Source: Escherichia coli
Lineage (GTDB): Bacteria > Pseudomonadota > Gammaproteobacteria > Enterobacterales > Enterobacteriaceae
Assembly: GCF_048403405.1 (NCBI RefSeq)
Contig: NZ_CP183129.1
Reading direction: 5' to 3' (one strand)
DNA: 64,000 nucleotides
Made by a program: the position numbers and the translations under genes. Below the pieces are notes generated by a model. That model had not been told where the DNA came from and searched no databases. It saw only the letters and a list, made by a program, of their open reading frames with translations. Every line of letters begins with the position of its first letter. Positions within the stretch are counted from its first letter, which is position 1. Positions 6,976-26,085 of the stretch are shown here, piece by piece.

Positions 6976-9200
6976 TATCGTTCTGCCGTGAAAAGTGTTT
7001 GAATATCATCGCGTAACAGCTGAGCGTCGGTGTAAATCCAGCTGTGAGTCATCACAGCCTGCTGCAATTGCTGCTGCATCAGCCTGACCACCGATTCATT
7101 TTGTTGACGCAGAGCCAGGCTTTCGCGTAAACGCGTCTGTAATTCCGTCAAACATGAAGCGAACTCAGCGAAAAAAGTATTCATGCCTGCCGTAACAGAT
7201 TCATCGACCTGCTCTGCCAGAACTTTAGCCATTTGTTGGCAATAAAGATCGACTTCTGCGCTTAATGCTCGTTGCAACACACTGTAATCAACCGTCTCTG
7301 TCGGGGATTTCTCATTTCCCCGTCCCCAGTCGGGCTGATTCAACCAGCGCGAAAAAGTCTCACGCACAACGCCTAAACGCGTGCTCTGCTCGTCCGTTGC
7401 TTCCTGGCGCGAAATGACTTCACTGAACAGCTGGCGAGTGTTGAAGTGGGGAACTGCGCCGTGAAAAACAGGAAAATGAAACCCAGGACGAAACCCTGAC
7501 TCGCTCAATTCCATTTTGACTTGTTGCTCAATGGGGCGAATAACATCGGTTAACACCCGGCAAAGGGTGGATTCCAGCTCGGCAAAACGCAGCGTAAAGT
7601 CGCGACTGATGGTGTTCTGCGCCGTCTGTAACAGTGTCTCACAGCGGGTACGAATCTCGCTTAACGGCTCCGAATCATCCTGAAACAAGGCGGCTAACTG
7701 CGCATTCACCGCATCTTGCTGTTGACGCAGAAAGTAGTTGGCGGAGGTCAGGGCCAGCTCGATTTCATGTTTAATTTCGCCGCTCACCTGCGCCTGATTG
7801 AGTTGCAATAGCTGCAAACTTTCTTCGATCTGATGGATATTTTGCCGCAATTGTTCACAAGCGACGTTTAACCCGTGCGCACGAAAATCCAGGTATTCCC
7901 GCGCCTGCTGCCCGTAATTCAACAGTTTATGCGCGGCAGATCGCAGAGCATACAACGAGGCGTTAGTGTAAGCGGCATGAAGCAACGCCTGAATTGGCTT
8001 GGCGAACAGCGAATCTTCCCACAACTGATCGGCAGCATGACGAATATGTTCGAGGTCCGCCAGATCGGCATGACGCCAGCGCCTGCCGAGCGCGGCATGG
8101 GCAAAATCTTCCACCCAGCGTTGTTGCTCTGGCGCGGGTAACTTACCGTTGTTGGCTAACTCATGGCGCGCCCGATTCGCCAGGTAGCCCCACATCGACG
8201 ACACTGGAAATATCTGCTGTGGCGTAATACAGCCTTTCATCAGCGTCCCGGAAATCAGTGCCCGCACCTGGTCGGCGTCGTCACTGTTACGATCCTGTTG
8301 ATCGAACTTATTGACCAGCACATACAGCGGCACCGATTGCCCCACCGCCAAAATCGCCTCACGGACCTCTTCATCGGAGATCGATTTCAGTTGCGTATAA
8401 TCCAGCACCGCCAGTACCGCCGAGGCGCGTGCCAGCTGCTGGTTAAGCATTTTTTGCAGATGCGGTTGCCCGGCTTCATTTGGCCCGGGGGTATCCAGTA
8501 ACGTCAACTGACCGGGATAACTCTCCAGCCCCGCCAGATGGACAAACTCCACTTCAATCACGGGAATATGCTCAATGGCGGCGTAAGCAGAAAAAGGAAA
8601 ATCGACGTCCAGCGCCTTCGCCAGTCGCACCAAATCATTCAAACTTTTCAGACAATGAAAAATAGGCTGGGCACCCAGATAATATTTTTCGAAAGCGACG
8701 CCATTTTCGATCCGCTGCATAAGCGCACGCATATCTTTATCTATTTCCAGCACATCGGTCAGATGCTTAATATCGCAATCACGCAGGCGCTGTTGTAATT
8801 TTTGAATTAAACAATCGATTGGCGCGACATGTGAAAAATGCAGTACCGGTTCCTTTTGCCCGGGCGTATGGCGAATAAGCGTCGGCAGCGCAGTCATTGG
8901 GCGATTACGATTAGGCAGAACCTCCGTACCAACAATGGCATTAATGGTGGTTGATTTCCCTGCTTTCATGGTACCGACAATCGCCAGCACCATTTCCAGT
9001 CGGGAAATTTTACGCAACTCATTATTCAGCATCGCGTGACGTTCGGCGATATTAGGCTGACTCCAGGGTAAAGCCAGTTGTGGCGCATCGTCTCCGGGGA
9101 CAGAGAGAGGCATTTTTTCCAGTAACTGCAACTGTTGGCGAGAAAGCTGTAACAGGCGTTCAGCCTCCTGACTTAACTCATACAGGGTCTGTGTGTACAT
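6972..9200 (-). CDS. yjdA: bacterial dynamin-like GTPase
   Basis: 742 aa; P-loop GTMKAGKSTTINAIVGTE and long coiled-coil regions; K-12 yjdA/crfC position. Confidence 0.85.
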   Translation of the reverse strand: MYTQTLYELSQEAERLLQLSRQQLQLLEKMPLSVPGDDAPQLALPWSQPNIAERHAMLNNELRKISRLEMVLAIVGTMKAGKSTTINAIVGTEVLPNRNRPMTALPTLIRHTPGQKEPVLHFSHVAPIDCLIQKLQQRLRDCDIKHLTDVLEIDKDMRALMQRIENGVAFEKYYLGAQPIFHCLKSLNDLVRLAKALDVDFPFSAYAAIEHIPVIEVEFVHLAGLESYPGQLTLLDTPGPNEAGQPHLQKMLNQQLARASAVLAVLDYTQLKSISDEEVREAILAVGQSVPLYVLVNKFDQQDRNSDDADQVRALISGTLMKGCITPQQIFPVSSMWGYLANRARHELANNGKLPAPEQQRWVEDFAHAALGRRWRHADLADLEHIRHAADQLWEDSLFAKPIQALLHAAYTNASLYALRSAAHKLLNYGQQAREYLDFRAHGLNVACEQLRQNIHQIEESLQLLQLNQAQVSGEIKHEIELALTSANYFLRQQQDAVNAQLAALFQDDSEPLSEIRTRCETLLQTAQNTISRDFTLRFAELESTLCRVLTDVIRPIEQQVKMELSESGFRPGFHFPVFHGAVPHFNTRQLFSEVISRQEATDEQSTRLGVVRETFSRWLNQPDWGRGNEKSPTETVDYSVLQRALSAEVDLYCQQMAKVLAEQVDESVTAGMNTFFAEFASCLTELQTRLRESLALRQQNESVVRLMQQQLQQAVMTHSWIYTDAQLLRDDIQTLFTAERY

Positions 9201-9601
9201 AGAAAATTCTTCCTTAAAGCAAATTTTGTTACTTTTATTTAGCCAGATTGTTTTTGAGTTCTGTTTTCGGCTTTTATAATTACTGCAAGAAATAATTTTA
9301 TATTTAGAGTGTTGTTTTTTATTAGAATAAATAACGTCTTCCGATACGTTTAAAACGTCAGAAAGATAAAAATATCATTTGAATTAAAAAAAGAACAAGT
9401 AGAGCATTAACCTTATCTTAAATAATAAATGGAGGCAAAAAGATTATTTTCTTTTTGCGTTTCCTTTCAAATGAAAACGATCGTCGTCTAAAATCAGCAG
9501 TACCCCCGACAAACTCAGGGATTTTGTGTATAATTGCGGCCTTTTTCGGCAATCTGCCGTTTTTTGGCGCTTTTGCCCTGCTGACTTTTGAGGAAATCCA
9601 C

Positions 9602-9937
9602 ATGTCATTACCACACTGCCCAAAATGCAACTCCGAATACACCTACGAAGATAACGGCATGTACATCTGCCCGGAATGTGCCTACGAATGGAACGACGCA
9701 GAACCTGCACAGGAAAGCGACGAGCTGATCGTTAAAGATGCTAACGGCAATCTGCTGGCTGACGGCGACAGCGTTACCATCATTAAAGATCTGAAGGTGA
9801 AAGGTAGCTCTTCGATGCTGAAAATTGGCACCAAAGTGAAAAACATCCGCCTGGTTGAAGGCGACCATAACATCGATTGCAAAATCGACGGTTTTGGTCC
9901 GATGAAACTGAAATCTGAGTTTGTGAAAAAGAACTGA
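9602..9937 (+). CDS. phnA: PhnA-family zinc-ribbon protein
   Basis: ORF 9455-9937 trimmed to ATG 9602 ([17 protein letters not shown]...), 111 aa; two CxxC pairs. Confidence 0.85.
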
Positions 9938-9955
9938 TTGTATTGTGATCGGTAA

Positions 9956-10031
9956 GCCGGATAAGGCGCTCGCGCCGCATCCGGCAACGATGCCGACTGC
10001 CTGATGCGACGCTGACCGCGTCTTATCAGGC
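9956..10031. repeat. REP (repetitive extragenic palindrome) pair
   Basis: gccggataaggcgctcgcgccgcatccggc and gcctgatgcgacgc...gcgtcttatcaggc read directly between phnA and phnB. Confidence 0.75.
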
Positions 10032-10096
10032 TTCCCTCTCATCTGTATAAATTTCGAACTACACTTAAGTGGCTTCTCTTAACTGAGGTCACCATC

Positions 10097-10540
10097 ATGC
10101 CGTTAAGTCCCTACCTCTCTTTTGCCGGTAACTGTGCCGACGCAATTGCTTATTATCAACGTACGTTGGGCGCTGAACTGCTCTATAAAATCAGCTTCGG
10201 CGAAATGCCAAAATCAGCGCAGGACAGCGCCGAGAACTGCCCTTCCGGAATGCAATTTCCCGATACCGCCATCGCCCACGCCAATGTGCGCATTGCCGGA
10301 AGCGATATCATGATGAGCGATGCTATACCGTCAGGAAAAGCCAGCTACTCCGGCTTTACGCTGGTGCTCGATTCGCAACAGGTCGAAGAAGGAAAACGCT
10401 GGTTTGACAACCTTGCCGCTAACGGAAAAATCGAAATGGCCTGGCAGGAAACTTTCTGGGCGCATGGCTTCGGCAAAGTCACCGATAAATTTGGCGTACC
10501 GTGGATGATTAATGTCGTCAAACAACAACCAACGCACTAA
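10097..10540 (+). CDS. phnB: glyoxalase/VOC-family protein
   Basis: 147 aa ORF; K-12 phnB/yjdN position upstream of phnC. Confidence 0.8.
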   Translation: MPLSPYLSFAGNCADAIAYYQRTLGAELLYKISFGEMPKSAQDSAENCPSGMQFPDTAIAHANVRIAGSDIMMSDAIPSGKASYSGFTLVLDSQQVEEGKRWFDNLAANGKIEMAWQETFWAHGFGKVTDKFGVPWMINVVKQQPTH

Positions 10541-10566
10541 CCCGCCGGGAGGGCCGCCCTCCCGCA

Positions 10567-10628
10567 CTGTCATCGAAATCTCGTTAACTCTTCATCCGTT
10601 AGTCACTTTTAGTTAACAAAATCGTCAC
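10567..10628 (+). promoter_or_regulatory. PhoB-dependent phnC promoter: array of Pho-box half-sites with 11-bp periodicity
   Basis: 7-mers ctgtcat(10567), atctcgt, tcttcat, tagtcac, agttaac, tcgtcac(10622) spaced every 11 bp, followed by -10-like aataat 10629-10634; phnC ATG at 10673. Confidence 0.6.
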
Positions 10629-10672
10629 AATAATCCGCCACGATGGAGCCACTTTTTTAGGGAGGCTGCATC

Positions 10673-11461
10673 ATGCAAACGATTATCCGTGTCGAGAAGC
10701 TCGCCAAAACCTTCAATCAGCATCAGGCGCTGCACGCGGTTGATCTGAACATTCATCACGGTGAAATGGTGGCTCTGCTTGGGCCGTCGGGTTCCGGCAA
10801 ATCCACCCTTTTACGTCACTTAAGCGGTTTGATTACCGGCGATAAATCTGCCGGTAGCCATATCGAGCTGCTGGGCCGCACAGTCCAGCGCGAAGGCCGC
10901 CTGGCCCGCGATATCCGCAAAAGCCGCGCCAACACCGGCTACATCTTCCAACAATTCAACCTGGTGAATCGCCTGAGCGTACTGGAGAACGTGCTGATTG
11001 GCGCGCTCGGCAGCACGCCATTCTGGCGCACCTGTTTTAGCTACTTCACTCGCGAGCAGAAACAGCGCGCGTTACAGGCGCTAACCCGCGTTGGCATGGT
11101 GCACTTTGCCCATCAGCGCGTTTCCACCCTCTCCGGCGGACAGCAGCAGCGTGTGGCGATTGCCCGCGCGCTGATGCAGCAGGCGAAGGTGATTCTGGCG
11201 GACGAACCCATCGCCTCGCTGGACCCGGAATCAGCGCGCATCGTGATGGACACCCTGCGCGACATCAACCAGAACGACGGCATTACCGTGGTCGTCACGC
11301 TGCATCAGGTGGATTACGCCCTGCGCTACTGCGAACGCATCGTCGCCCTGCGCCAGGGGCACGTCTTCTACGACGGCAGCAGCCAACAGTTTGATAACGA
11401 ACGCTTTGATCATCTCTATCGCAGCATCAACCGCGTCGAAGAGAACGCGAAAGCTGCCTGA
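10673..11461 (+). CDS. phnC: phosphonate ABC transporter ATP-binding protein
   Basis: 262 aa; Walker [13 protein letters not shown] signature LSGGQQQR. Confidence 0.92.
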
Positions 11462-11485
11462 CATCCCCATCATTGAGGAAAACGA

Positions 11486-12502
11486 ATGAACGCTAAGATA
11501 ATTGCCTCGCTGGCCTTCACCAGCATGTTCAGCCTCAGCACCCTGTTAAGCCCGGCGCACGCCGAAGAGCAGGAAAAGGCGCTGAATTTCGGCATTATTT
11601 CAACGGAATCACAGCAAAACCTGAAACCGCAATGGACGCCGTTCTTACGGGATATGGAGAAGAAGCTGGGCGTAAAGGTCAACGCCTTCTTTGCCCCGGA
11701 CTACGCGGGCATTATCCAGGGGATGCGCTTCAATAAAGTGGATATCGCCTGGTACGGCAACCTGTCGGCGATGGAAGCGGTGGATCGCGCCAACGGTCAG
11801 GTCTTCGCCCAGACGGTCGCGGCGGATGGATCGCCAGGTTACTGGAGCGTGTTGATCGTCAACAAAGACAGCCCGATCAACAACCTGAACGATCTGCTGG
11901 CGAAGCGGAAAGATCTCACCTTCGGTAATGGCGATCCTAACTCCACCTCTGGCTTCCTCGTCCCCGGTTACTACGTCTTCGCCAAAAACAATATCTCCGC
12001 CAGCGACTTCAAGCGCACCGTCAATGCCGGGCATGAAACCAACGCGCTGGCCGTCGCCAACAAGCAGGTGGATGTGGCGACCAACAACACCGAGAACCTC
12101 GACAAGCTGAAAACCTCCGCACCGGAGAAGCTCAAAGAGCTGAAAGTGATCTGGAAATCGCCGCTGATTCCAGGCGATCCGATCGTCTGGCGCAAAAATC
12201 TGTCCGAAACCACCAAAGACAAGATCTACGACTTCTTTATGAATTACGGCAAAACGCCGGAAGAGAAAGCGGTGCTGGAACGCCTGGGCTGGGCCCCGTT
12301 CCGCGCCTCCAGCGACCTGCAACTGGTACCGATTCGCCAGCTCGCGCTGTTTAAAGAGATGCAGGGCGTGAAAAGCAATAAAGGGCTGAATGAGCAGGAC
12401 AAGCTGGCGAAAACCACCGCGATTCAGGCGCAGCTGGATGACCTGGACCGCCTGAACAACGCGTTAAGCGCGATGAGTTCGGTAAGTAAAGCGGTGCAGT
12501 AA
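11486..12502 (+). CDS. phnD: phosphonate ABC transporter periplasmic binding protein
   Basis: 338 aa with N-terminal signal peptide (…LLSPAHA). Confidence 0.9.
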   Translation: MNAKIIASLAFTSMFSLSTLLSPAHAEEQEKALNFGIISTESQQNLKPQWTPFLRDMEKKLGVKVNAFFAPDYAGIIQGMRFNKVDIAWYGNLSAMEAVDRANGQVFAQTVAADGSPGYWSVLIVNKDSPINNLNDLLAKRKDLTFGNGDPNSTSGFLVPGYYVFAKNNISASDFKRTVNAGHETNALAVANKQVDVATNNTENLDKLKTSAPEKLKELKVIWKSPLIPGDPIVWRKNLSETTKDKIYDFFMNYGKTPEEKAVLERLGWAPFRASSDLQLVPIRQLALFKEMQGVKSNKGLNEQDKLAKTTAIQAQLDDLDRLNNALSAMSSVSKAVQ

Positions 12503-12516
12503 TGTGCTCGATCGAT

Positions 12517-12603
12517 CCCCTCTCCCTTGAGGGAGAGGGTTAGGGTGAGGGGGAAATGCGCACGCTGATGCCCTCACCCCGGCCCTCTCCCACAGGGAGA
12601 GGG
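12517..12603. repeat. GC-rich nested palindromic intergenic repeat (three hairpin modules)
   Basis: ccctctccc-ttga-gggagaggg (12518-12539), gggtgaggg...ccctcaccc (12543-12580), ccctctccc-aca-gggagaggg (12583-12603) read directly between phnD and phnE. Confidence 0.6.
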
Positions 12604-12627
12604 AGAAAACATTAAACGGAGCAATAT

Positions 12628-13407
12628 ATGCAAACCATCACCATCGCCCCACCCAAGCGCAGCTGGTTCTCGCTTCTGAGCTGGGCCATTGTACTCGCCG
12701 TGCTGGTCGTCTCGTGGCAGGGCGCGGAAATGGCCCCGCTCACGCTGATCAAAGACGGCGGCAACATGGCAACCTTCGCCGCCGACTTCTTCCCGCCCGA
12801 TTTCAGCCAGTGGCAGGATTACCTCACCGAAATGGCCGTCACGCTGCAAATCGCCGTCTGGGGCACCGCGCTGGCGGTGGTTCTCTCCATCCCCTTTGGC
12901 CTGATGAGCGCCGAAAACCTGGTGCCGTGGTGGGTTTACCAACCCGTTCGCCGCCTGATGGACGCCTGCCGCGCCATTAACGAGATGGTCTTCGCCATGC
13001 TGTTCGTGGTCGCCGTCGGTCTCGGTCCGTTCGCTGGCGTACTGGCGCTGTTTATCCACACCACCGGCGTGCTCTCCAAACTGCTTTCCGAAGCGGTAGA
13101 AGCAATTGAACCCGGCCCGGTGGAAGGTATTCGCGCCACCGGTGCCAACAAGCTGGAAGAGATTCTCTACGGCGTGCTGCCACAGGTGATGCCGCTGCTG
13201 ATCTCCTACTCCCTCTATCGCTTCGAATCCAACGTCCGCTCGGCGACCGTCGTCGGCATGGTCGGCGCGGGCGGGATCGGCGTCACCCTGTGGGAAGCGA
13301 TTCGCGGTTTCCAGTTCCAGCAAACCTGCGCCCTGATGGTGCTGATTATCGTCACGGTCAGCCTGCTGGATTTCCTCTCTCAACGGTTGCGTAAGCACTT
13401 TATCTGA
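12628..13407 (+). CDS. phnE: phosphonate ABC transporter permease, apparently intact
   Basis: Uninterrupted 259-codon ORF with GGAG Shine-Dalgarno 8 nt upstream; polytopic membrane protein. Confidence 0.85.
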
Positions 13408-13427
13408 TAAGCGAGGCATTGATATCT

Positions 13428-14153
13428 ATGCACTTGTCTACACATCCGACCAGCTACCCAACACGCTATCAGGAGATAGCCGCAAAACTTGAGCAGGAGC
13501 TTCGTCAACACTACCGCTGCGGCGACTATCTTCCCGCCGAGCAGCAACTGGCGGCGCGCTTTGAGGTGAACCGCCACACCCTGCGCCGCGCCATCGACCA
13601 ACTGGTGGAAAAAGGCTGGGTACAGCGCCGTCAGGGCGTCGGCGTGCTGGTGCTGATGCGCCCGTTCGATTACCCGCTCAACGCCCAGGCGCGTTTTAGC
13701 CAGAACCTGCTGGATCAGGGCAGCCATCCCACCAGCGAAAAACTGCTGTCTGTGCTGCGCCCGGCCTCCGGTCACGTCGCTGACGCGCTGGGGATAACCG
13801 AGGGCGAGAACGTTATCCACCTGCGCACCCTGCGTCGGGTCAACGGCGTCGCGCTCTGTTTAATCGACCACTACTTTGCGGACCTCACCCTCTGGCCGAC
13901 GCTGCAACGCTTCGACAGCGGCTCGCTGCACGATTTTCTGCGCGAGCAAACGGGGATTGCGCTGCGCCGCAGCCAGACGCGGATCAGCGCCCGCCGCGCC
14001 CAGGCCAAAGAGTGCCAGCGTCTTGAAATCCCGAATATGTCGCCGCTGCTGTGCGTGCGCACCCTTAACCACCGTGACGGTGAAAGCAGCCCGGCGGAGT
14101 ACTCCGTCAGCCTGACGCGCGCCGACATGATTGAATTCACTATGGAGCACTGA
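13428..14153 (+). CDS. phnF: GntR-family transcriptional regulator of the phn operon
   Basis: ORF-track TTG start 13419 trimmed to ATG 13428, 241 aa; N-terminal HTH. Confidence 0.85.
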   Translation: MHLSTHPTSYPTRYQEIAAKLEQELRQHYRCGDYLPAEQQLAARFEVNRHTLRRAIDQLVEKGWVQRRQGVGVLVLMRPFDYPLNAQARFSQNLLDQGSHPTSEKLLSVLRPASGHVADALGITEGENVIHLRTLRRVNGVALCLIDHYFADLTLWPTLQRFDSGSLHDFLREQTGIALRRSQTRISARRAQAKECQRLEIPNMSPLLCVRTLNHRDGESSPAEYSVSLTRADMIEFTMEH

Positions 14154-14606
14154 ATGCACGCAGATACCGCGACCCGCCAGCACTGGATGTCCGTGCTGGC
14201 ACACAGCCAACCGGCTGAACTGGCAGCCCGCCTGAAGGCGCTGAACATCACTGCCGACTATGAAGTAATCCGCGCCGCTGAAACCGGCCTGGTGCAGATT
14301 CAGGCGCGGATGGGTGGCACCGGCGAACGCTTTTTTGCTGGCGACGCCACGCTCACCCGCGCCGCCATACGCCTGACTGACGGCACGCTCGGCTACAGCT
14401 GGGTGCTGGGGCGCGACAAACAGCACGCCGAACGCTGCGCGCTGATCGACGCGCTGATGCAGCAAACCCGCCATTTTCAAAACTTATCAGAAACTCTTAT
14501 TGCCCCGCTGAACGCTGACCGTATGGCACGCATTGCCGCACGCCAGGCCGAAGTAAACGCCAGCCGGGTCGACTTCTTTACGATGGTTCGCGGAGACAAC
14601 GCATGA
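14154..14606 (+). CDS. phnG: C-P lyase core complex subunit
   Basis: 150 aa; start abuts phnF stop (TGAATG). Confidence 0.88.
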
Positions 14607-15187
14607 CCCTGGAAACCGCTTTTATGCTTCCCGTGCAGGATTCCCAGCACAGTTTTCGTCGCCTGTTAAAGGCCATGAGCGAGCCGGGCGTGATTGTCGC
14701 CCTGCATCAGCTCAAACGCGGCTGGCAGCCGCTGAATATCGCCACCACCAGCGTGCTGCTGACGCTGGCCGATAACGACACGCCGGTGTGGCTTTCTGCG
14801 CCATTAAGTAACGATATCGTCAGCCAGAGCCTGCGTTTTCATACCAACGCGCCGCTGGTCAATCAGCCGGAACTGGCGACCTTCGCGGTAACGGATGAGG
14901 CGATTTCCAGCGAACAGCTCAACGCTCTTTCCAGCGGCACCGCTGTTGCGCCGGAAGCGGGCGCGACGCTGATTTTACAGGTCGTCAGCCTGAGCGGCGG
15001 GCGCATGCTGCGCCTTACTGGCGCGGGTATTGCCGAAGAACGAATGATCGCTCCGCAGCTGCCGGAGTGCATTCTGCACGAACTCACCGAGCGCCCGCAC
15101 CCGTTCCCGCTCGGCATCGACCTGATCCTGACCTGCGGCGAGCGGCTGCTGGCTATCCCGCGAACCACTCATGTGGAGGTGTGCTGA
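14603..15187 (+). CDS. phnH: C-P lyase core complex subunit
   Basis: 194 aa; ATGA overlap with phnG. Confidence 0.88.
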
Positions 15188-16251
15188 TGTACGTTGCCGT
15201 GAAAGGGGGCGAGAAGGCGATCGACGCCGCCCACGCCCTGCAAGAGAGCCGACGCCGGGGCAATACCGATTTGCCTGAACTGAGCGTCGCCCAGATTGAA
15301 CAGCAGCTTAATCTTGCAGTAGATCGCGTGATGACCGAAGGCGGCATTGCCGACCGCGAACTGGCGGCGCTGGCGCTGAAACAGGCCAGCGGCGATAACG
15401 TCGAAGCGATTTTCCTGCTACGCGCCTACCGCACCACGCTGGCGAAGCTCGCGGTAAGCGAGCCGCTCGACACCACGGAGATGCGTCTCGAACGGCGTAT
15501 TTCAGCGGTTTATAAAGACATTCCCGGCGGCCAACTGCTTGGCCCAACCTACGACTACACCCATCGCCTGCTCGATTTCACCCTGCTGGCAAACGGCGAA
15601 GCGCCGACGCTGACCACCGCCGACAGCGAACAACAGCCGTCGCCGCACGTTTTCAGCCTGCTGGCGCGTCAGGGGCTGGCGAAGTTTGAAGAAGATAGCG
15701 GCGCACAGCCGGACGACATCACCCGCACGCCGCCGGTTTACCCCTGCTCACGCTCCTCCCGCCTGCAACAATTAATGCGCGGCGACGAAGGCTATTTGCT
15801 GGCGCTGGCCTACTCCACCCAGCGTGGTTACGGACGCAATCATCCGTTCGCAGGCGAAATCCGCAGCGGCTATATCCACGTGTCGATTGTGCCGGAAGAG
15901 CTGGGATTTGCGGTGAACGTCGGCGAACTGCTGATGACCGAATGTGAAATGGTCAACGGTTTTATCGACCCGCCGGATGAGCCGCCGCACTTCACGCGCG
16001 GCTACGGGCTGGTGTTCGGCATGAGCGAGCGCAAAGCGATGGCGATGGCGCTGGTTGACCGCGCTCTACAAGCCCCGGAGTACGGCGAGCACGCGACAGG
16101 CCCGGCGCAGGATGAAGAGTTCGTGCTGGCGCATGCCGACAACGTCGAAGCCGCAGGCTTTGTCTCGCACCTTAAACTCCCGCACTACGTCGATTTCCAG
16201 GCCGAACTGGAGCTACTCAAACGTCTGCAACAGGAGCAGAACCATGGCTAA
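15187..16251 (+). CDS. phnI: C-P lyase core complex subunit (nucleosidase-like)
   Basis: ORF 15067-16251 trimmed to ATG 15187 ([13 protein letters not shown]...), 354 aa; start overlaps phnH stop by 1 nt. Confidence 0.88.
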   Translation: MYVAVKGGEKAIDAAHALQESRRRGNTDLPELSVAQIEQQLNLAVDRVMTEGGIADRELAALALKQASGDNVEAIFLLRAYRTTLAKLAVSEPLDTTEMRLERRISAVYKDIPGGQLLGPTYDYTHRLLDFTLLANGEAPTLTTADSEQQPSPHVFSLLARQGLAKFEEDSGAQPDDITRTPPVYPCSRSSRLQQLMRGDEGYLLALAYSTQRGYGRNHPFAGEIRSGYIHVSIVPEELGFAVNVGELLMTECEMVNGFIDPPDEPPHFTRGYGLVFGMSERKAMAMALVDRALQAPEYGEHATGPAQDEEFVLAHADNVEAAGFVSHLKLPHYVDFQAELELLKRLQQEQNHG

Positions 16252-17089
16252 TCTGAGCGGCTACAACTTTGCCTACCTCGACGAGCAGACCAAACGCATG
16301 ATCCGCCGCGCCATCTTAAAAGCGGTGGCGATCCCCGGTTATCAGGTGCCGTTTGGCGGGCGCGAGATGCCGATGCCGTACGGCTGGGGAACTGGTGGTA
16401 TCCAGCTTACCGCCAGCGTGATTGGCGAAAGCGACGTGTTGAAGGTGATTGACCAGGGTGCGGATGACACCACCAACGCCGTGTCGATTCGCAACTTCTT
16501 TAAGCGCGTGACCGGGGTAAACACCACTGAACGTACGGACGATGCGACGCTTATCCAGACGCGTCACCGCATCCCCGAAACGCCGCTGACTGAAGATCAG
16601 ATCATTATCTTCCAGGTGCCAATCCCGGAACCGCTGCGCTTTATCGAGCCGCGCGAAACGGAGACCCGCACTATGCACGCGCTGGAGGAGTACGGCGTGA
16701 TGCAGGTGAAACTGTATGAAGATATCGCCCGCTTCGGTCATATCGCCACCACTTATGCCTATCCGGTGAAGGTGAACGGGCGCTACGTGATGGACCCGTC
16801 GCCGATCCCGAAATTCGATAACCCGAAAATGGACATGATGCCCGCCCTGCAGCTGTTCGGCGCAGGGCGCGAGAAGCGCATCTATGCGGTGCCGCCGTTT
16901 ACCCGCGTGGAAAGCCTCGATTTCGACGATCACCCGTTCACCGTTCAGCAGTGGAATGAGCCATGCGCCATCTGCGGATCGACCCACAGCTATCTTGATG
17001 AAGTGGTGCTGGATGACGCCGGAAACCGCATGTTTGTCTGCTCCGATACCGATTATTGCCGCCAACAGAGCGAGGCAAAAAACCAATGA
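16244..17089 (+). CDS. phnJ: C-P lyase catalytic subunit (radical SAM-type 4Cys cluster)
   Basis: ORF 16055-17089 trimmed to ATG 16244 (MANLSGYNFAYLDEQ...), 281 aa; C-terminal CxxC...C...C cysteine cluster. Confidence 0.9.
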   Translation: MANLSGYNFAYLDEQTKRMIRRAILKAVAIPGYQVPFGGREMPMPYGWGTGGIQLTASVIGESDVLKVIDQGADDTTNAVSIRNFFKRVTGVNTTERTDDATLIQTRHRIPETPLTEDQIIIFQVPIPEPLRFIEPRETETRTMHALEEYGVMQVKLYEDIARFGHIATTYAYPVKVNGRYVMDPSPIPKFDNPKMDMMPALQLFGAGREKRIYAVPPFTRVESLDFDDHPFTVQQWNEPCAICGSTHSYLDEVVLDDAGNRMFVCSDTDYCRQQSEAKNQ

Positions 17090-17844
17090 ATCAACCGTTA
17101 CTTTCGGTCAATAACCTGACCCACCTTTACGCGCCGGGCAAAGGCTTTAGCGATGTCTCTTTTGATTTATGGCCGGGGGAAGTGCTGGGCATCGTCGGGG
17201 AATCCGGCTCCGGGAAGACCACGCTGCTGAAATCAATCTCCGCGCGCCTGACGCCGCAGCAGGGGGAGATTCGCTATGAAAACCGCTCCCTCTATGGCAT
17301 GAGCGAAGCCGACCGCCGCCGTTTACTGCGCACCGAATGGGGCGTGGTACATCAGCATCCGCTCGACGGCCTGCGCCGCCAGGTGTCGGCAGGCGGCAAT
17401 ATCGGCGAGCGGCTGATGGCGACCGGGGCGCGTCATTACGGCGATATTCGCGCCACCGCGCAGAAGTGGCTGGAAGAGGTGGAGATTCCCGCTAACCGGA
17501 TCGACGACCTGCCAACCACCTTTTCCGGCGGCATGCAGCAGCGTTTGCAGATTGCCCGCAACCTGGTGACGCATCCGAAGCTGGTGTTTATGGACGAACC
17601 AACCGGCGGGCTGGATGTGTCGGTGCAGGCGCGCCTGCTCGACCTGCTGCGCGGCCTGGTGGTGGAGCTGAACCTGGCGGTGGTGATTGTCACCCACGAT
17701 TTAGGCGTCGCCCGCCTGCTGGCGGACCGTTTGCTGGTGATGAAGCAGGGGCAAGTAGTGGAGAGTGGGTTAACCGACCGCGTGCTCGACGACCCTCACC
17801 ATCCATATACCCAGCTGCTGGTGTCATCGGTTTTGCAGAATTGA
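17086..17844 (+). CDS. phnK: C-P lyase accessory ABC-type ATPase
   Basis: ORF trimmed to ATG 17086 ([11 protein letters not shown]...), 252 aa; Walker [10 protein letters not shown]. Confidence 0.9.
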
Positions 17845-17850
17845 GCCAGT

Positions 17851-17933
17851 GCCGGATACGGCGTAAACGCCTTATCCGGCCGACAAATGCGCTCCCCGTA
17901 GGTCGGATAAGACGCGTCAGCGTCGCATCCGAC
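17851..17933. repeat. REP pair inside the phn operon (phnK-phnL intercistronic)
   Basis: gccggatacggcgtaaacgccttatccggc and ggtcggataagacgcgtcagcgtcgcatccgac read directly. Confidence 0.75.
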
Positions 17934-17954
17934 ACCCGAACCACGAGGCGAAAA

Positions 17955-18635
17955 ATGATTAACGTACAAAACGTCAGTAAAACCTTCATCCTGCACCAGC
18001 AAAACGGCGTGCGCCTGCCCGTCTTACAACGTGCCTCGCTCACCGTCAACGCAGGCGAATGCGTGGTGCTTCACGGCCACTCCGGCAGCGGCAAATCAAC
18101 TCTGCTGCGCTCGCTGTACGCCAACTATCTGCCCGATGAAGGGCAAATCCAGATCAAACATGGTGACGAGTGGGTAGACCTGGTCACTGCGCCAGCGCGC
18201 AAAGTGGTGGAAATCCGCAAAACCACTGTCGGCTGGGTGAGCCAGTTTCTGCGCGTCATCCCGCGTATTTCGGCACTGGAAGTGGTGATGCAGCCTCTGC
18301 TCGATACCGGCGTACCGCGTGAAGCCTGCGCCGCTAAAGCCGCCCGATTACTGACGCGCCTGAACGTGCCTGAGCGCCTGTGGCACCTTGCGCCATCAAC
18401 CTTCTCCGGCGGTGAACAACAGCGCGTCAACATCGCCCGCGGCTTTATCGTCGACTACCCTATTCTGCTGCTCGACGAACCCACCGCCTCGCTGGACGCC
18501 AAAAACAGCGCCGCGGTGGTGGAACTAATTCGCGAAGCCAAAGCCCGTGGCGCGGCCATCGTCGGCATTTTCCATGACGAAGCCGTACGCAATGACGTCG
18601 CCGACCGCCTGCACCCAATGGGAGCCTCTTCATGA
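17955..18635 (+). CDS. phnL: C-P lyase accessory ABC-type ATPase
   Basis: ORF trimmed to ATG 17955 ([11 protein letters not shown]...), 226 aa; Walker [10 protein letters not shown]. Confidence 0.9.
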
Positions 18636-19768
18636 TTATCAATAACGTTAAGCTGGTGCTGGAAAACGAAGTGGTGCACGGTTCGCTGGAGATGCAGGAC
18701 GGTGAAATCCGCGCCTTTGCCGAAAGCCAGAGCCGCCTGCCGGACGCGATGGACGGCGAAGGTGGCTGGCTGCTGCCGGGGCTGATTGAGCTGCATACCG
18801 ATAATCTGGATAAATTCTTCACCCCGCGCCCGAAAGTTGACTGGCCCGCCCATTCAGCGATGAGCAGCCACGACGCGCTGATGGTGGCAAGCGGCATCAC
18901 CACCGTACTGGACGCCGTGGCGATTGGTGATGTGCGCGACGGCGGCGATCGGCTGGAGAATCTGGAGAAGATGATCAACGCCATCGAAGAGACGCAGAAA
19001 CGCGGCGTCAACCGCGCCGAGCACCGCCTGCACCTGCGCTGCGAACTGCCGCACCACACCACGTTGCCGCTGTTTGAAAAACTGGTGCAGCGCGAACCGG
19101 TGACGCTGGTATCGCTGATGGACCACTCGCCAGGCCAGCGCCAGTTCGCCAATCGCGAGAAGTATCGCGAATATTATCAGGGCAAATATTCCCTCACCGA
19201 TGCGCAGATGCAGCAGTACGAAGAAGAGCAATTGGCGCTCGCCGCACGCTGGTCGCAGCCAAATCGCGAAACCATCGCCGCAATGTGCCGCGCGCGACAC
19301 ATTGCGCTCGCCAGCCACGATGACGCCACGCACGCCCACGTTGCCGAATCCCACCAGCTTGGCAGCGTGATCGCCGAATTTCCCACCACGTTCGAAGCGG
19401 CAGAAGCCTCGCGCAAGCATGGCATGAACGTGCTGATGGGCGCGCCGAATATCGTGCGCGGCGGTTCGCACTCCGGCAACGTGGCGGCCAGTGAACTGGC
19501 GCAGCTTGGCCTGCTGGATATCCTCTCTTCCGACTACTACCCCGCCAGCCTGCTCGATGCGGCATTTCGCGTCGCCGATGACGAGAGCAACCGCTTTACG
19601 CTGCCGCAGGCGGTGAAGTTGGTGACCAAAAATCCGGCGCAGGCGCTTAATCTCCAGGATCGCGGGGTGATTGGCGAGGGCAAACGCGCCGACCTGGTGC
19701 TGGCGCATCGCAAGGGCAATCACATTCATATCGACCACGTCTGGCGTCAGGGTAAAAGGGTGTTCTGA
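18632..19768 (+). CDS. phnM: amidohydrolase-family C-P lyase pathway enzyme
   Basis: 378 aa; ATGA overlap with phnL. Confidence 0.9.
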
Positions 19769-20325
19769 TGACGGGAAAACTGATTTGGTTAATGGGGGCC
19801 TCTGGCTCCGGAAAAGACAGTCTGTTGACGGAACTCCGCCAGCGGGAACAAACTCAGCTACTGGTAGCGCATCGCTACATCACGCGCGCCGCCAGCGCCG
19901 GAAGTGAAAACCATATCGCCCTGAGCGAGCAGGAGTTTTTTACCCGCGCGGGGCAAAATCTGCTGGCCTTAAGCTGGCACGCTAACGGCCTGTATTATGG
20001 CGTCGGCGTCGAGATTGACCTCTGGCTGCACGCTGGATTTGACGTGATGGTCAACGGCTCACGCGCCCATCTGCCGCAGGCGCGGGCGCGCTATCAATCG
20101 GCGCTGCTGCCCGTTTGTTTACAGGTTTCGCCGGAGATCCTGCGCCAGCGCCTCGAAAACCGTGGTCGTGAAAATGCCAGTGAAATTAACGCCCGACTGG
20201 CACGCGCTGCCCGCTATACTCCTCAGGATTGTCTTACGCTCAATAATGACGGCAGCCTGCGCCAGTCGGTCGACAAGCTGCTGACGCTGATTCATCAGAA
20301 GGAGAAACACCATGCCTGCTTGTGA
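19768..20325 (+). CDS. phnN: ribose 1,5-bisphosphate phosphokinase
   Basis: 185 aa; P-loop GASGSGKDS; start overlaps phnM stop. Confidence 0.9.
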
Positions 20326-20746
20326 GCTTCGCCCGGCTACGCAGTACGACATCGACGCAGTTTACGCGCTGATTTGTGAGCTAAAACAGGCGGAGTTTGA
20401 CCACCACGCGTTTCGCGTGGGGTTTAACGCCAATCTGCGCGACCCGAACATGCGCTACCATTTGGCGCTGCTGGATGGCGAGGTTGTCGGCATGATCGGT
20501 CTGCATTTGCAGTTTCATCTGCATCATGTCAACTGGATCGGCGAAATTCAGGAACTGGTGGTGATGCCGCAGGCGCGCGGTCTGAACGTCGGTAGTAAAT
20601 TACTGGCATGGGCAGAAGAAGAAGCCCGCCAGGCCGGGGCAGAAATGACCGAGCTTTCCACCAACGTCAAGCGCCACGACGCGCACCGTTTCTATCTGCG
20701 CGAAGGCTATGAGCAGAGCCACTTCCGCTTCACCAAGGCGCTGTAA
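20312..20746 (+). CDS. phnO: GNAT-family aminoalkylphosphonate N-acetyltransferase
   Basis: 144 aa; 14-nt overlap with phnN. Confidence 0.88.
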
Positions 20747-20747
20747 C

Positions 20748-21506
20748 ATGAGCCTGACCCTCACACTTACTGGCACTGGCGGCGCACAGGGCGTTCCCGC
20801 ATGGGGCTGTGAGTGCGCGGCCTGCGCCAGAGCGCGGCGCTCATCGCAGTATCGCCGCCAGCCATGCAGCGGCGTCGTGAAGTTTAACGACGCGATCACC
20901 CTGATCGACGCCGGGCTGCACGATCTCGCCGATCGCTGGTCGCCCGGATCGTTCCAGCAGTTTTTGCTGACGCACTACCATATGGATCACGTGCAGGGGC
21001 TGTTTCCGCTGCGCTGGGGCGTGGGCGATTCGATCCCGATCTACGGCCCGCCGGATGAACAGGGCTGCGACGATCTGTTTAAACATCCGGGCCTGCTTGA
21101 TTTCAGCCACACGATGGAACCGTTTGTGGTGTTTGATTTACAGGGGTTACAGGTCACGCCCCTGCCGCTCAACCACTCAAAACTGACCTTCGGTTATCTG
21201 CTGGAAACGGCACACAGCCTGGTGGCGTGGCTGTCTGACACCGCTGGCTTGCCGGAAAAAACGCTGAAATTTTTACGCAATAATCAGCCGCAGGTAATGG
21301 TGATTGATTGCAGCCATCCGCCGCGTGCGGATGCGCCGCGTAATCACTGTGATTTAAACACCGTGCTGGCGCTGAATGAGGTTATCCGCTCGCCACGGGT
21401 GATTCTGACGCATATCAGCCACCAGTTTGATGCGTGGCTGATGGAAAACGCACTGCCGTCGGGGTTTGAGGCGGGGTTTGATGGGATGGAGATTGGGGTG
21501 GCGTGA
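20748..21506 (+). CDS. phnP: metallo-beta-lactamase-fold phosphodiesterase
   Basis: ORF 20709-21506 trimmed to ATG 20748 ([12 protein letters not shown]...), 252 aa; HxHxDH motif (THYHMDH). Confidence 0.9.
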
Positions 21507-21560
21507 TGGGATGGAGATTGGGGTGGCGTGATGGGATGGAGATTGGGGTGGCGTGATGGG
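21480..21560. repeat. tandem direct repeat, 25-bp unit gatgggatggagattggggtggcgt x3 plus a partial copy
   Basis: Units at 21480-21504, 21505-21529, 21530-21554 are identical; the first unit encodes the last phnP codons and the stop TGA 21504-21506. Confidence 0.9.
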
Positions 21561-21597
21561 GAGAATGTGCTCGCTGGCCCCCTCACCCGAGCCTACC

Positions 21598-21927
21598 TCA
21601 TCGCCCATACTCATCTTCCATTCTCCGCTCTTCATCCTCCAGTTGCCGACGCTCCTGATCAAGCTGGCGCTGGCGATCGTCCAGCTGCCTGCGGCGATCT
21701 TCAAACTGGCGGCGGCGGTCGTCATATTGTCTGCGCCGATCGTCGCTCACTTCACGCTGCCAGCCGTCGTCGTGCGAATCTTCATAGTCTCGCCCACGGT
21801 CAGGGTTATAAGCATCGTTAATCGCCTGCTGAATATTGCCAATGGTGTCGTCGATAATATCGGCCTGGGCCGGAACGGTGGACAGCGTGAGCAGGGTGAA
21901 TAAAAGAAATAGCGGAAAGCGTTTCAT
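21598..21927 (-). CDS. yjdP: secreted low-complexity protein with charged DDRRRQ-type repeats
   Basis: 109 aa; N-terminal signal peptide followed by RRRQ/DDRRRQ repeats; convergent with phnP. Confidence 0.8.
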   Translation of the reverse strand: MKRFPLFLLFTLLTLSTVPAQADIIDDTIGNIQQAINDAYNPDRGRDYEDSHDDGWQREVSDDRRRQYDDRRRQFEDRRRQLDDRQRQLDQERRQLEDEERRMEDEYGR

Positions 21928-21995
21928 TAGCCAACCTCAAAAAGAAACTCTATCCACATTAGTCATTACTCATCCATGCAAGTAGTGGATGAATC

Positions 21996-22313
21996 TCAAT
22001 TTCTCCGCTGCTCTATTGCCGTAATCGCCTCCACGTGTTGTTGATGACGACCGCCTTCGTACTGCGCGCCCAGCCACGCATCCACAATCATTTTTGCCAG
22101 TTCGAGGCCAACCACTCGTGAACCAAAAGCCAGTGCAACTTCACTGGCATAATGCGGATAATCAGTGCGCTCTGACGACCTGGTGTCTTTATCAATCACC
22201 TCACTCATTGACCATGAATAAAAGGCTGGCACAGCAACGCAGAATCCTGCGGTGCCAGCGACATGACCGCCCATTGCTCCGGTACGTTTTTTAATAAAAA
22301 ACACCGGTTGCAT
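21996..22313 (-). pseudogene. rpiB: degraded ribose-5-phosphate isomerase B remnant
   Basis: Translation ends ...FGSRVVGLELAKMIVDAWLGAQYEGGRHQQHVEAITAIEQRRN, matching the RpiB C-terminus as I recall it, and contains SERTDYPHYAS; about 52 internal residues including the ICGTG active-site Cys region are missing and the N-terminal GCDHVG motif reads GGHVAG. Confidence 0.6.
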
Positions 22314-22565
22314 TGATTAATTGTGCTCAGTATTTGCCGAAGTACAATATATATAATAAATATATAAAACACCTCATATTATTTACAGAGATAATAAATT
22401 CGCGTAATTTTCCCTCTTCAGCACAAATGCCTAATAAAATGGCGCGTTCAGCTCACACTTCTACTTATTAAAGTCGCAATTTCCCAATTATGATAACGCC
22501 AGCTTTAAATGACGTATTTTGCATGGATTACATATTTACGACACAAATGATAAATGGAGATTTAT

Positions 22566-24551
22566 ATGAATAACTCTCGGTTATTCCGTTTGAGCAGGAT
22601 TGTTATTGCGTTAACTGCCGCCAGCGGCATGATGGTAAATACCGCTTACGCAACAGATGAAGCGAAAGCCGCCACTCAATATACCCAACAGATTAATCAG
22701 AATTACGCCAAATCATTACCGTTTAGCGATCGTCAGGATTTTGACGATGCCCAGCGTGGATTTATCGCCCCGCTGCTGGATGAAGGTATTCTGCGTGATG
22801 CTAACGGTAAAGTTTACTACCGCGCAGACGATTACAAATTTGATATTAATGCCGCTGCGCCGGAAACCGTAAACCCCAGCCTGTGGCGTCAGTCGCAAAT
22901 CAACGGTATTTCTGGCCTGTTCAAAGTCACCGATAAAATGTATCAGGTGCGCGGCCAGGATATCTCTAACATTACGTTCGTTGAGGGCGAGAAAGGCATT
23001 ATTGTTATCGACCCACTGGTGACGCCGCCTACCGCAAAAGCCGCACTTGATCTTTACTTCCAGCATCGTCCGCAAAAACCGATTGTTGCTGTGATTTACA
23101 CCCACAGCCACGCCGACCATTATGGCGGTGTGAAAGGCATTATCTCTGAAGCCGATGTTAAATCCGGCAAAGTTCAGGTGATTGCTCCAGCTGGCTTTAT
23201 GGACGAAGCCATCAGCGAAAACGTGCTGGCGGGTAACATCATGAGCCGCCGTGCGCTCTACTCTTACGGTCTGTTACTGCCGCACAACGCGCAAGGCAAC
23301 GTGGGCAACGGCCTTGGCGTGACGCTGGCAACGGGCGACCCGAGCATTATTGCACCGACTAAAACTATCGTCAGAACTGGCGAGAAGATGATTATCGACG
23401 GCCTGGAGTTTGACTTCCTGATGACCCCAGGTAGCGAAGCGCCAGCCGAAATGCACTTCTATATTCCGGCCCTGAAAGCCCTGTGTACCGCCGAGAACGC
23501 CACGCATACCCTGCACAACTTCTACACTCTGCGCGGCGCGAAAACCCGCGATACCAGCAAGTGGACCGAGTACCTGAACGAAACGCTGGATATGTGGGGT
23601 AACGACGCGGAAGTACTGTTTATGCCGCACACCTGGCCGGTCTGGGGCAATAAGCATATCAATGATTATATTGGTAAATATCGCGATACTATCAAGTACA
23701 TTCACGACCAGACCCTGCACCTGGCGAACCAGGGCTACACCATGAATGAAATCGGCGACATGATTAAGCTGCCGCCTGCGCTTGCCAATAATTGGGCCAG
23801 CCGCGGCTATTACGGTTCTGTCAGCCACAACGCCCGCGCGGTATATAACTTCTATCTTGGCTATTACGACGGTAACCCGGCTAACCTGCATCCCTATGGT
23901 CAGGTGGAGATGGGTAAACGTTACGTGCAGGCGCTGGGCGGTTCTGCCCGTGTCATCAACCTGGCGCAAGAAGCGAACAAGCAAGGTGATTACCGTTGGT
24001 CGGCAGAACTGCTGAAACAGGTGATTGCCGCCAACCCAGGTGACCAGGTCGCGAAGAATCTGCAAGCGAATAACTTTGAACAGCTGGGCTATCAGGCCGA
24101 GTCCGCCACCTGGCGCGGTTTCTACCTGACCGGCGCGAAAGAGCTGCGCGAAGGGGTACATAAGTTCAGCCACAGCTCCACCGGTTCCCCGGACACCCTT
24201 CGCGGGATGTCGGTCGAAATGCTATTCGACTTTATGGCCGTTCGCCTCGATAGCGCGAAAGCCGCAGGTAAGAATATCAGCCTGAACTTCAATATGAGCA
24301 ACGGCGATAACCTCAACCTGACGCTGAACGATAGCGTGCTTAACTACCGTAAAACGCTGCAACCTGAAGCCAACGCCTCTTTCTACATCAGCCGTGAAGA
24401 TCTTCACGCCGTGCTGACCGGACAAGCCAAAATGGCGGATCTGGTAAAAGCGAAGAAAGCCAAAATTATTGGCAATGGTGCGAAACTGGAAGAAATTATT
24501 GCCTGTCTGGATAATTTCGATTTGTGGGTGAATATCGTAACCCCAAATTAA
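22566..24551 (+). CDS. yjcS: alkyl/aryl-sulfatase-like metallo-beta-lactamase-fold protein, secreted
   Basis: ORF trimmed to ATG 22566 (GGAG 8 nt upstream), 661 aa; signal peptide; HxHxDH motif YTHSHADH. Confidence 0.85.
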
Positions 24552-24561
24552 TGCCACTCAC

Positions 24562-24598
24562 TTTTGGGGGCCCTTAAGCCCCCAAAAGCATTTATTTA
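24562..24598 (+). terminator. rho-independent terminator of yjcS
   Basis: 10-bp stem ttttgggggc / gcccccaaaa with 6-nt loop, followed by catttatttaaaaaa. Confidence 0.7.
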
Positions 24599-24759
24599 AA
24601 AAATATATACAGCAAATTAATACATAAAATATATAAGTTATGAATGCGGTGGCTGAATAAAGCTATTTTTATTCATCGAGAAAATAGCCATACTGACGCC
24701 TTCAATGGATATTGATATTCACTACAGATATTGTTCGCAGCAGACAGGATGTATTTAAT

Positions 24760-25035
24760 ATGCCAACAGTTCTCTCTCGCATGGCGATGCAACTCAAAAA
24801 AACAGCCTGGATAATTCCCGTCTTCATGGTTTCGGGATGCTCATTATCTCCGGCAATCCCGGTGATCGGCGCTTATTATCCCAGCTGGTTTTTCTGCGCC
24901 ATTGCCAGCCTTATTTTGACGCTCATCACGAGGCGAATTATTCAGCGGGCAAATATCAATCTGGCATTTGTCGGAATTATTTATACCGCCCTTTTTGCTC
25001 TCTACGCCATGCTGCTCTGGCTGGCATTTTTCTAA
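24760..25035 (+). CDS. ytcA: small lipoprotein-like membrane protein upstream of mdtN
   Basis: ORF trimmed to ATG 24760 (MPTVLSRMAMQLKK...), 91 aa; lipobox-like VSGCSL. Confidence 0.75.
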   Translation: MPTVLSRMAMQLKKTAWIIPVFMVSGCSLSPAIPVIGAYYPSWFFCAIASLILTLITRRIIQRANINLAFVGIIYTALFALYAMLLWLAFF

Positions 25036-25053
25036 TTTATTTGAGACGCGCTC

Positions 25054-26085
25054 ATGGAAAGTACGCCGAAAAAAGCTCCTCGCAGTAAATTCCCTGCTCT
25101 GTTAGTGGTTGCGTTGGCGCTGGTTGCCCTTGTTTTCGTTATCTGGCGCGTAGACAGTGCGCCATCAACTAATGACGCCTACGCGTCAGCAGATACCATT
25201 GATGTGGTGCCGGAAGTCAGCGGTCGCATTGTAGAACTGGCGGTCACCGACAACCAAGCGGTGAAACAGGGCGATTTGCTGTTCCGCATCGACCCGCGCC
25301 CGTACGAAGCCAATCTGGCGAAAGCCGAAGCCTCCCTCGCGGCGCTGGATAAGCAAATTATGCTCACCCAGCGTAGCGTTGACGCGCAACAGTTTGGTGC
25401 CGACTCGGTTAATGCCACGGTAGAAAAAGCCCGTGCCGCCGCGAAACAGGCCACAGATACATTACGCCGCACCGAGCCATTACTGAAAGAAGGTTTTGTC
25501 TCAGCGGAAGACGTTGACCGTGCAAGAACTGCGCAGCGCGCTGCAGAAGCGGATCTTAATGCCGTATTGTTACAGGCGCAGTCAGCCGCCAGCGCCGTCA
25601 GCGGCGTCGATGCGCTGGTGGCGCAACGTGCGGCGGTCGAAGCGGATATTGCCCTGACCAAACTGCATCTGGAAATGGCGACCGTTCGCGCGCCGTTTGA
25701 TGGCCGGGTCATTTCCCTCAAAACCTCCGTCGGGCAATTTGCTTCTGCCATGCGCCCTATTTTCACCCTAATCGACACTCGTCACTGGTACGTGATCGCC
25801 AATTTCCGCGAAACTGATCTGAAAAATATTCGCTCAGGTACACCCGCAACGATTCGCCTGATGAGCGACAGCGGCAAAACCTTCGAGGGTAAAGTGGATT
25901 CGATTGGCTACGGCGTGCTACCGGATGACGGCGGCCTGGTGCTGGGCGGCCTGCCGAAAGTGTCTCGTTCTATTAACTGGGTCCGCGTTGCCCAGCGTTT
26001 TCCGGTCAAAATCATGGTTGATAAACCTGACCCGGAAATGTTCCGCATCGGCGCTTCGGCAGTCGCTAATCTTGAGCCGCAATAA
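25054..26085 (+). CDS. mdtN: efflux pump membrane fusion protein (HlyD family)
   Basis: 343 aa; single N-terminal TM helix then coiled-coil periplasmic domain. Confidence 0.88.
   Translation: MESTPKKAPRSKFPALLVVALALVALVFVIWRVDSAPSTNDAYASADTIDVVPEVSGRIVELAVTDNQAVKQGDLLFRIDPRPYEANLAKAEASLAALDKQIMLTQRSVDAQQFGADSVNATVEKARAAAKQATDTLRRTEPLLKEGFVSAEDVDRARTAQRAAEADLNAVLLQAQSAASAVSGVDALVAQRAAVEADIALTKLHLEMATVRAPFDGRVISLKTSVGQFASAMRPIFTLIDTRHWYVIANFRETDLKNIRSGTPATIRLMSDSGKTFEGKVDSIGYGVLPDDGGLVLGGLPKVSRSINWVRVAQRFPVKIMVDKPDPEMFRIGASAVANLEPQ

Follow-up and report, generated by a model that had tools for sequence, protein, structure and literature searches.

An intact two-unit phnE allele within a complete C-P lyase operon of an Escherichia coli chromosome outside the K-12 lineage

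INTRODUCTION

In Escherichia coli K-12, phnE is cryptic through an 8-bp tandem unit (PMC6469041). Experiments have shown that deletion of GCTGGCGT at nucleotides 407-414 of the open reading frame (ORF) restores transport by PhnCDE, and phnE+ revertants of K-12 arise readily (PMC6469041, PMC4759930). In a K-12 revertant, whose PhnE is one residue away from the protein described here, PhnE acts with PhnC and PhnD to transport phosphonate and Pi (PMC6469041). Reversible switching of phnE is reported in literature cited by PMC6469041.

PhnE is the membrane permease of the binding-protein-dependent ABC importer PhnCDE, which takes up phosphonates and also phosphate. Here we describe phnE and its surroundings in a 64,000-nucleotide stretch of an E. 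coli chromosome (contig NZ_CP183129.1, assembly GCF_048403405.1), referred to below as the window, and compare the locus with its counterparts in K-12 and in other complete E. coli genomes.

RESULTS

An uninterrupted 259-codon phnE had been proposed for this locus, and the ORF table agrees: the frame opens with ATG, has 0 internal stops in its translation and ends with TGA at 13405-13407, directly followed by TAA. The good Shine-Dalgarno sequence named in the same prediction is also present (Table 1). A longer PhnE N-terminus is impossible because an in-frame TAA at 12613-12615, 15 nt 5' of phnE, shuts the frame upstream. Against the NCBIfam equivalog TIGR01097, which has a curated cutoff of 216.7 bits, PhnE scored 311.3 bits with profile positions 8-251 of 252 covered, and Pfam BPD_transp_1 (PF00528) matched residues 88-258 with 91.8 bits. 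The protein has both the membrane domain of binding-protein-dependent transporters and an EAA-type coupling loop; the stretch EGIRATGA...LP, read in the translation at residues 166-185, is what we take to be this EAA-like cytoplasmic loop. The gene order is phnC (ATPase), phnD (binding protein), phnE and phnF-P (C-P lyase genes). By its profile matches and its alignment with K-12 phnE, the ORF encodes a homologue of PhnE rather than arising by chance. Strain 4621 has an identical gene, whose annotation gives an intact product (WP_001193496.1).

The pairwise alignment of phnE from the window with that of K-12 DH5a contained one gap of 8 columns (K-12 GCTGGCGTGCTGGCGTGCTGGCGC, window GCTGGCGTACTGGCGC). 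K-12 (DH5a, MG1655) carries three 8-bp units from ORF nucleotide 406, in the context TTC GCTGGCGT GCTGGCGT GCTGGCGC TGTTT, whereas the window reads TTC GCTGGCGT ACTGGCGC TGTTT; the second unit of the window starts with A, as a Val codon has changed synonymously from GTG to GTA. In K-12 the frame runs through 140 native residues and 49 out-of-frame residues to a stop at codon 190, and this truncation drops the EAA-like loop. PGAP annotates phnE of DH5a as "frameshifted" and phnE1 of MG1655 as a pseudogene. The statement in the original prediction that an 8-bp tandem duplication makes K-12 phnE cryptic by a frameshift is thus correct by alignment, by the stop at codon 190 and by the literature (PMC6469041). 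The K-12-type allele with three units and a +8 frameshift is not what the window holds; it has two units and an open frame. Tandem Repeats Finder (TRF) called the 8-bp array in K-12, but not in window positions 12500-13500 even at the lowest score. A terminator-like match at 13032-13047 was rejected, as it consists of the two 8-bp units pairing within the coding sequence.

When the window phnE was compared with an in silico 8-bp-deletion revertant of K-12 phnE (780 bp), 23 nucleotides and a single residue (V21I) differed; five other E. coli phnE alleles differed from the window by 23-38 nucleotides and one or two residues. As 22 of the 23 differences from the K-12 revertant are synonymous, the substitution ratio indicates strong purifying selection; V21I is a conservative change.

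Table 1. Features of the phn locus in the window
Feature	Position	Strand	Basis or remark
PhoB-box region, phnC promoter	10596..10628	+	three substitutions vs MG1655: 10597 T>C, 10612 A>G, 10618 C>A
phnC, ABC transporter ATPase, full length	10673..11461	+	98.5% aa identity to K-12, gap-free
phnD, periplasmic phosphonate-binding protein, full length	11486..12502	+	99.4% aa identity to K-12
phnD-phnE spacer, palindromic dispersed repeat	12503..12627		arms 12525-12551 and 12571-12597; no homology to REP-containing spacer of K-12
phnE Shine-Dalgarno sequence GGAG	12618-12621	+	6 nt before ATG; GGAG also in K-12
phnE, phosphonate ABC transporter permease gene, intact, 259 codons	12628..13407	+	ORF listing, translation, profile match
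phnE slippage site, two 8-bp units GCTGGCGT ACTGGCGC	13033..13048	+	alignment with K-12
phnF-phnP, all full length	13428..21506	+	protein alignment, BLASTN, annotation of strain 4621
phnF	13428-14153	+	full length
phnG	14154-14606	+	full length
phnH	14603-15187	+	full length
phnI	15187-16251	+	full length
phnJ	16244-17089	+	full length
phnK	17086-17844	+	full length
phnL	17955-18635	+	full length
phnM	18632-19768	+	full length
phnN	19768-20325	+	full length
phnO	20312-20746	+	full length
phnP	20748-21506	+	full length
rpiB remnant, 105-aa ORF	21999..22313	-	only C-terminal 37 residues match LacAB_rpiB domain

All 14 K-12 Phn proteins aligned to the window at full length and without gaps (95.7-100% identity), and the phn genes of the identical locus in strain 4621 are annotated as intact. 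In a BLASTN comparison of window positions 9000-27000 with MG1655, the 8-bp unit was the sole indel across 12617-21515, a stretch of 8.9 kb that begins with the phnE ribosome site and runs through phnP. With 14 full-length phn genes and no other indel, a working operon would be the expected phenotype, in line with the predicted function without reversion, which is qualified by three substitutions in the phnC promoter.

These substitutions (CTGTTAG>CCGTTAG, TTTTAAT>TTTTAGT and CAAATCG>AAAATCG) lie in a region that is presumably the Pho box of the phnC promoter, and the T>C change affects the first CTGT half-site. Pho-box half-sites usually keep the T at their second position, and its replacement could weaken the induction of the phn operon by PhoB. 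They are the only real caveat to an operon that functions without reversion: intact ORFs might be combined with poor inducibility, yielding a Phn-weak strain. We consider this improbable, since the promoter haplotype, shared by 418 genomes, is kept alongside intact genes, and since strong purifying selection downstream, as seen in the mostly synonymous changes in phnE, would be surprising if the operon were silent. Moreover, the promoter region has 0 indels relative to MG1655 and matches K-12 exactly in the -10 region, at the phnC ribosome site and at the start codon.

Several repeats accompany the operon. The G+C-rich element in the phnD-phnE spacer has 27-nt arms with the cores CCCTCTCCC/GGGAGAGGG and is dispersed in E. 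coli (2 places per genome at the median, 5 at most), with the K-12 copies lying elsewhere; by analogy to REP, this palindrome may stabilise the upstream phnD message. The phnK-phnL spacer contains at 17846-17929 a REP-like element in inverted orientation, with about 78% similarity to the REP325 units of K-12. The last phnP codons and the stop codon open a perfect tandem array at 21479-21560, in which the 25-bp unit TGATGGGATGGAGATTGGGGTGGCG occurs 3.3 times; the PhnP protein is unchanged because the extra copies come after the stop. K-12 has a single copy of this 25-bp sequence, and 18 of 5426 genomes cover the stretch at 80% or more. A scan of window positions 9000-23000 against Rfam found nothing in or adjoining phnE, the sole match being one naRNA4/REP325 unit (RF02564, 87.5 bits) at 9955-10032 between yjdM and yjdN; in the same place MG1655 has 5.8 tandem 100-bp REP325 copies (L003 23806-24385).

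Short tandem repeats are prone to indel errors, and the open frame might in principle be an assembly or sequencing error that hides a true sequence of three units. However, window positions 9000-23000 are 100% identical over 14 kb to six independent complete chromosomes of clinical-type E. coli (4621, MS 69-1, TUM1226, OX030728, TUM14771 and GN02461), the next-best match having 98.1% identity, and a 33-mer across the two-unit GTA site is found in 408 genomes, compared to 0 of 5426 for a three-unit GTA form. Because six assemblies share the exact sequence and the 33-mer recurs in 408 genomes, a sequencing artefact can be ruled out for practical purposes, and we regard the two-unit site as genuine.

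The absence of the als operon had also been predicted, and this absence holds. Homologues of alsR, alsB, alsA, alsC, alsE and alsK were not found in the window, alsA giving only matches to ABC-ATPase paralogues. At the junction around 22204-22341 the alsR-alsBACEK genes of K-12, about 6.6 kb in MG1655, are missing. The scar at 21999-22341 consists of the rpiB remnant, which has lost about 150 bp internally, followed by about 140 bp without a K-12 counterpart. The identity to MG1655 over the phn operon is 95.7%, and the lineage is, by these sequence comparisons, not K-12. This part of the original prediction stands, but the two markers on which it had been based are not distinctive, intact phnE occurring in about 81% of complete E. 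coli genomes and als being absent (as judged from alsB) from about 37%; the lack of als shows "not K-12" and, like intact phnE, nothing more specific. Although K-12 revertants with a slipped repeat are easily obtained (PMC6469041, PMC4759930), the window cannot stem from a phnE+ revertant of K-12, given 23 nucleotide differences in phnE alone, the operon identity of 95.7%, another phnD-phnE spacer, the absence of alsR-alsBACEK and one REP325 unit instead of 5.8. An antisense ORF of 281 codons (12574..13419, -) is a little longer than phnE but was likewise rejected as the true gene: it matches no Pfam family, the product of the + frame is a full-length PhnE equivalog, and substitutions between strains are synonymous in that + frame. 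We interpret it as an artefact, antisense to a G+C-rich gene.

The distribution of phnE alleles was determined in 5426 complete E. coli genomes, 5394 of which contained phnE, with short queries that seed only across a given repeat junction. Three-unit phnE of the K-12 type occurred in about 1010 genomes (1010-1012; 18.6% of 5426), the two-unit GTG form in 2259 and the two-unit GTA form of the window in 408. Of about 5391 genomes, 3677 were classed by these queries; the others have nearby SNPs that break the 28-mer seed. Such SNP-bearing in-frame alleles were found in O157:H7 (GCTGGTGT GCTGGCGC) and in D5 and CFSAN064035 (CTATTTAT). Of 39 full-length phnE matches sampled evenly, 31 were 780 bp and 8 were 788 bp long; with the remaining genomes judged in frame from this sample, intact phnE is the majority state in about 81% of complete genomes. 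In O157:H7 F7508 (NZ_CP038357.1; L005 1-45) phnD is annotated as "frameshifted" and phnE is intact, and phosphonate uptake in this lineage may be lost by a route other than phnE.

The three-unit carriers among the sampled matches included isolates from human, pig, chicken, sewage/wastewater and kangaroo, and one of the pig isolates is annotated as "frameshifted", as is K-12. The frameshift allele is therefore neither specific to K-12 nor a laboratory oddity, since wild isolates carry it. E. coli OkiPb01713 (NZ_AP042682.1; L010 706-761) has a frameshifted phnE of 820 bp with seven 8-bp units on a different haplotype, showing that the phnE tract varies in nature. At the level of the species, the locus thus has the property of a slipped-strand phase-variable (contingency) one, with 2, 3 or 7 units across genomes and switching of the frame.

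In the window, the core repeated between the units GCTGGCGT and ACTGGCGC comprises 6 nt, compared to 7 nt in the GTG form. Alleles with perfect repeats expand in nature: about 1010 genomes have three units and one has seven. None of the 5426 genomes has a GTA allele extended to three units, which would agree with a repeat weakened by the A but is weak evidence, as the 408 GTA carriers are related. It is conceivable, if somewhat doubtful, that GTG>GTA has made this haplotype of about 408 genomes "locked-ON" for phnE, so that it rarely slips OFF. If true, this would be of modest interest.

DISCUSSION

The window very probably carries the wild-type, in-frame "ON" form of phnE in a complete C-P lyase operon, which would provide a full permease and phosphonate import without reversion. 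The sequence state, the completeness of the genes and the frequency in the population were observed, and from them we infer expression and transport. In K-12, the third unit shifts the frame such that the protein ends before the EAA-like loop that couples the permease to the PhnC ATPase. With two units in the window, the full six-helix permease should be made, encoded within the complete phnCDEFGHIJKLMNOP operon. Upon phosphate limitation, PhoB would switch on the phnC promoter, and phosphonates could be imported and cleaved with no prior reversion by slippage.

Intact phnE is a common and already published state and its presence here is no discovery; it matters little beyond annotation, K-12 being the exception. 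For annotators, phnE at this locus is an ordinary 259-codon CDS, and the predicted phenotype of the strain is Phn+. A modestly useful by-product is that about one in five complete E. coli genomes has the "cryptic" allele of K-12, wild isolates making up many of the carriers. This frequency, together with the seven-unit isolate, is in keeping with the description of phnE in the literature as a naturally occurring slippage switch.

Beyond the phn locus, PhnE resembles MetI, the permease of the methionine ABC importer (PDB 3dhw, 6cvl). A PDB sequence search did not find any PhnE sequence, and MetI is the closest solved structure by sequence. Both share the BPD_transp_1 core (PhnE residues 125-254), but MetI is a distant relative (E about 6e-6, 29 bits) with another substrate. 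Far closer is the cryptic phnE of K-12 (phnE1/phnE2, b4583/b4104), the orthologous locus with 96% nucleotide identity and the same ribosome site and start codon. The extra GCTGGCGT unit of K-12, the frameshift after residue 140 and the stop at codon 190 are absent from the window, which also differs by 23 mostly synonymous nucleotide changes, by the initial A (GTA) of the second unit and by another palindromic repeat in the phnD-phnE spacer. The best counterpart is phnE+ as found in E. coli B, in most natural isolates and in 8-bp-deletion revertants of K-12, with which the window shares the gene, its place in the operon, the length of 780 bp and two units at ORF nucleotide 406; PhnE of the K-12 revertant is the same protein as that of the window except for V21I.
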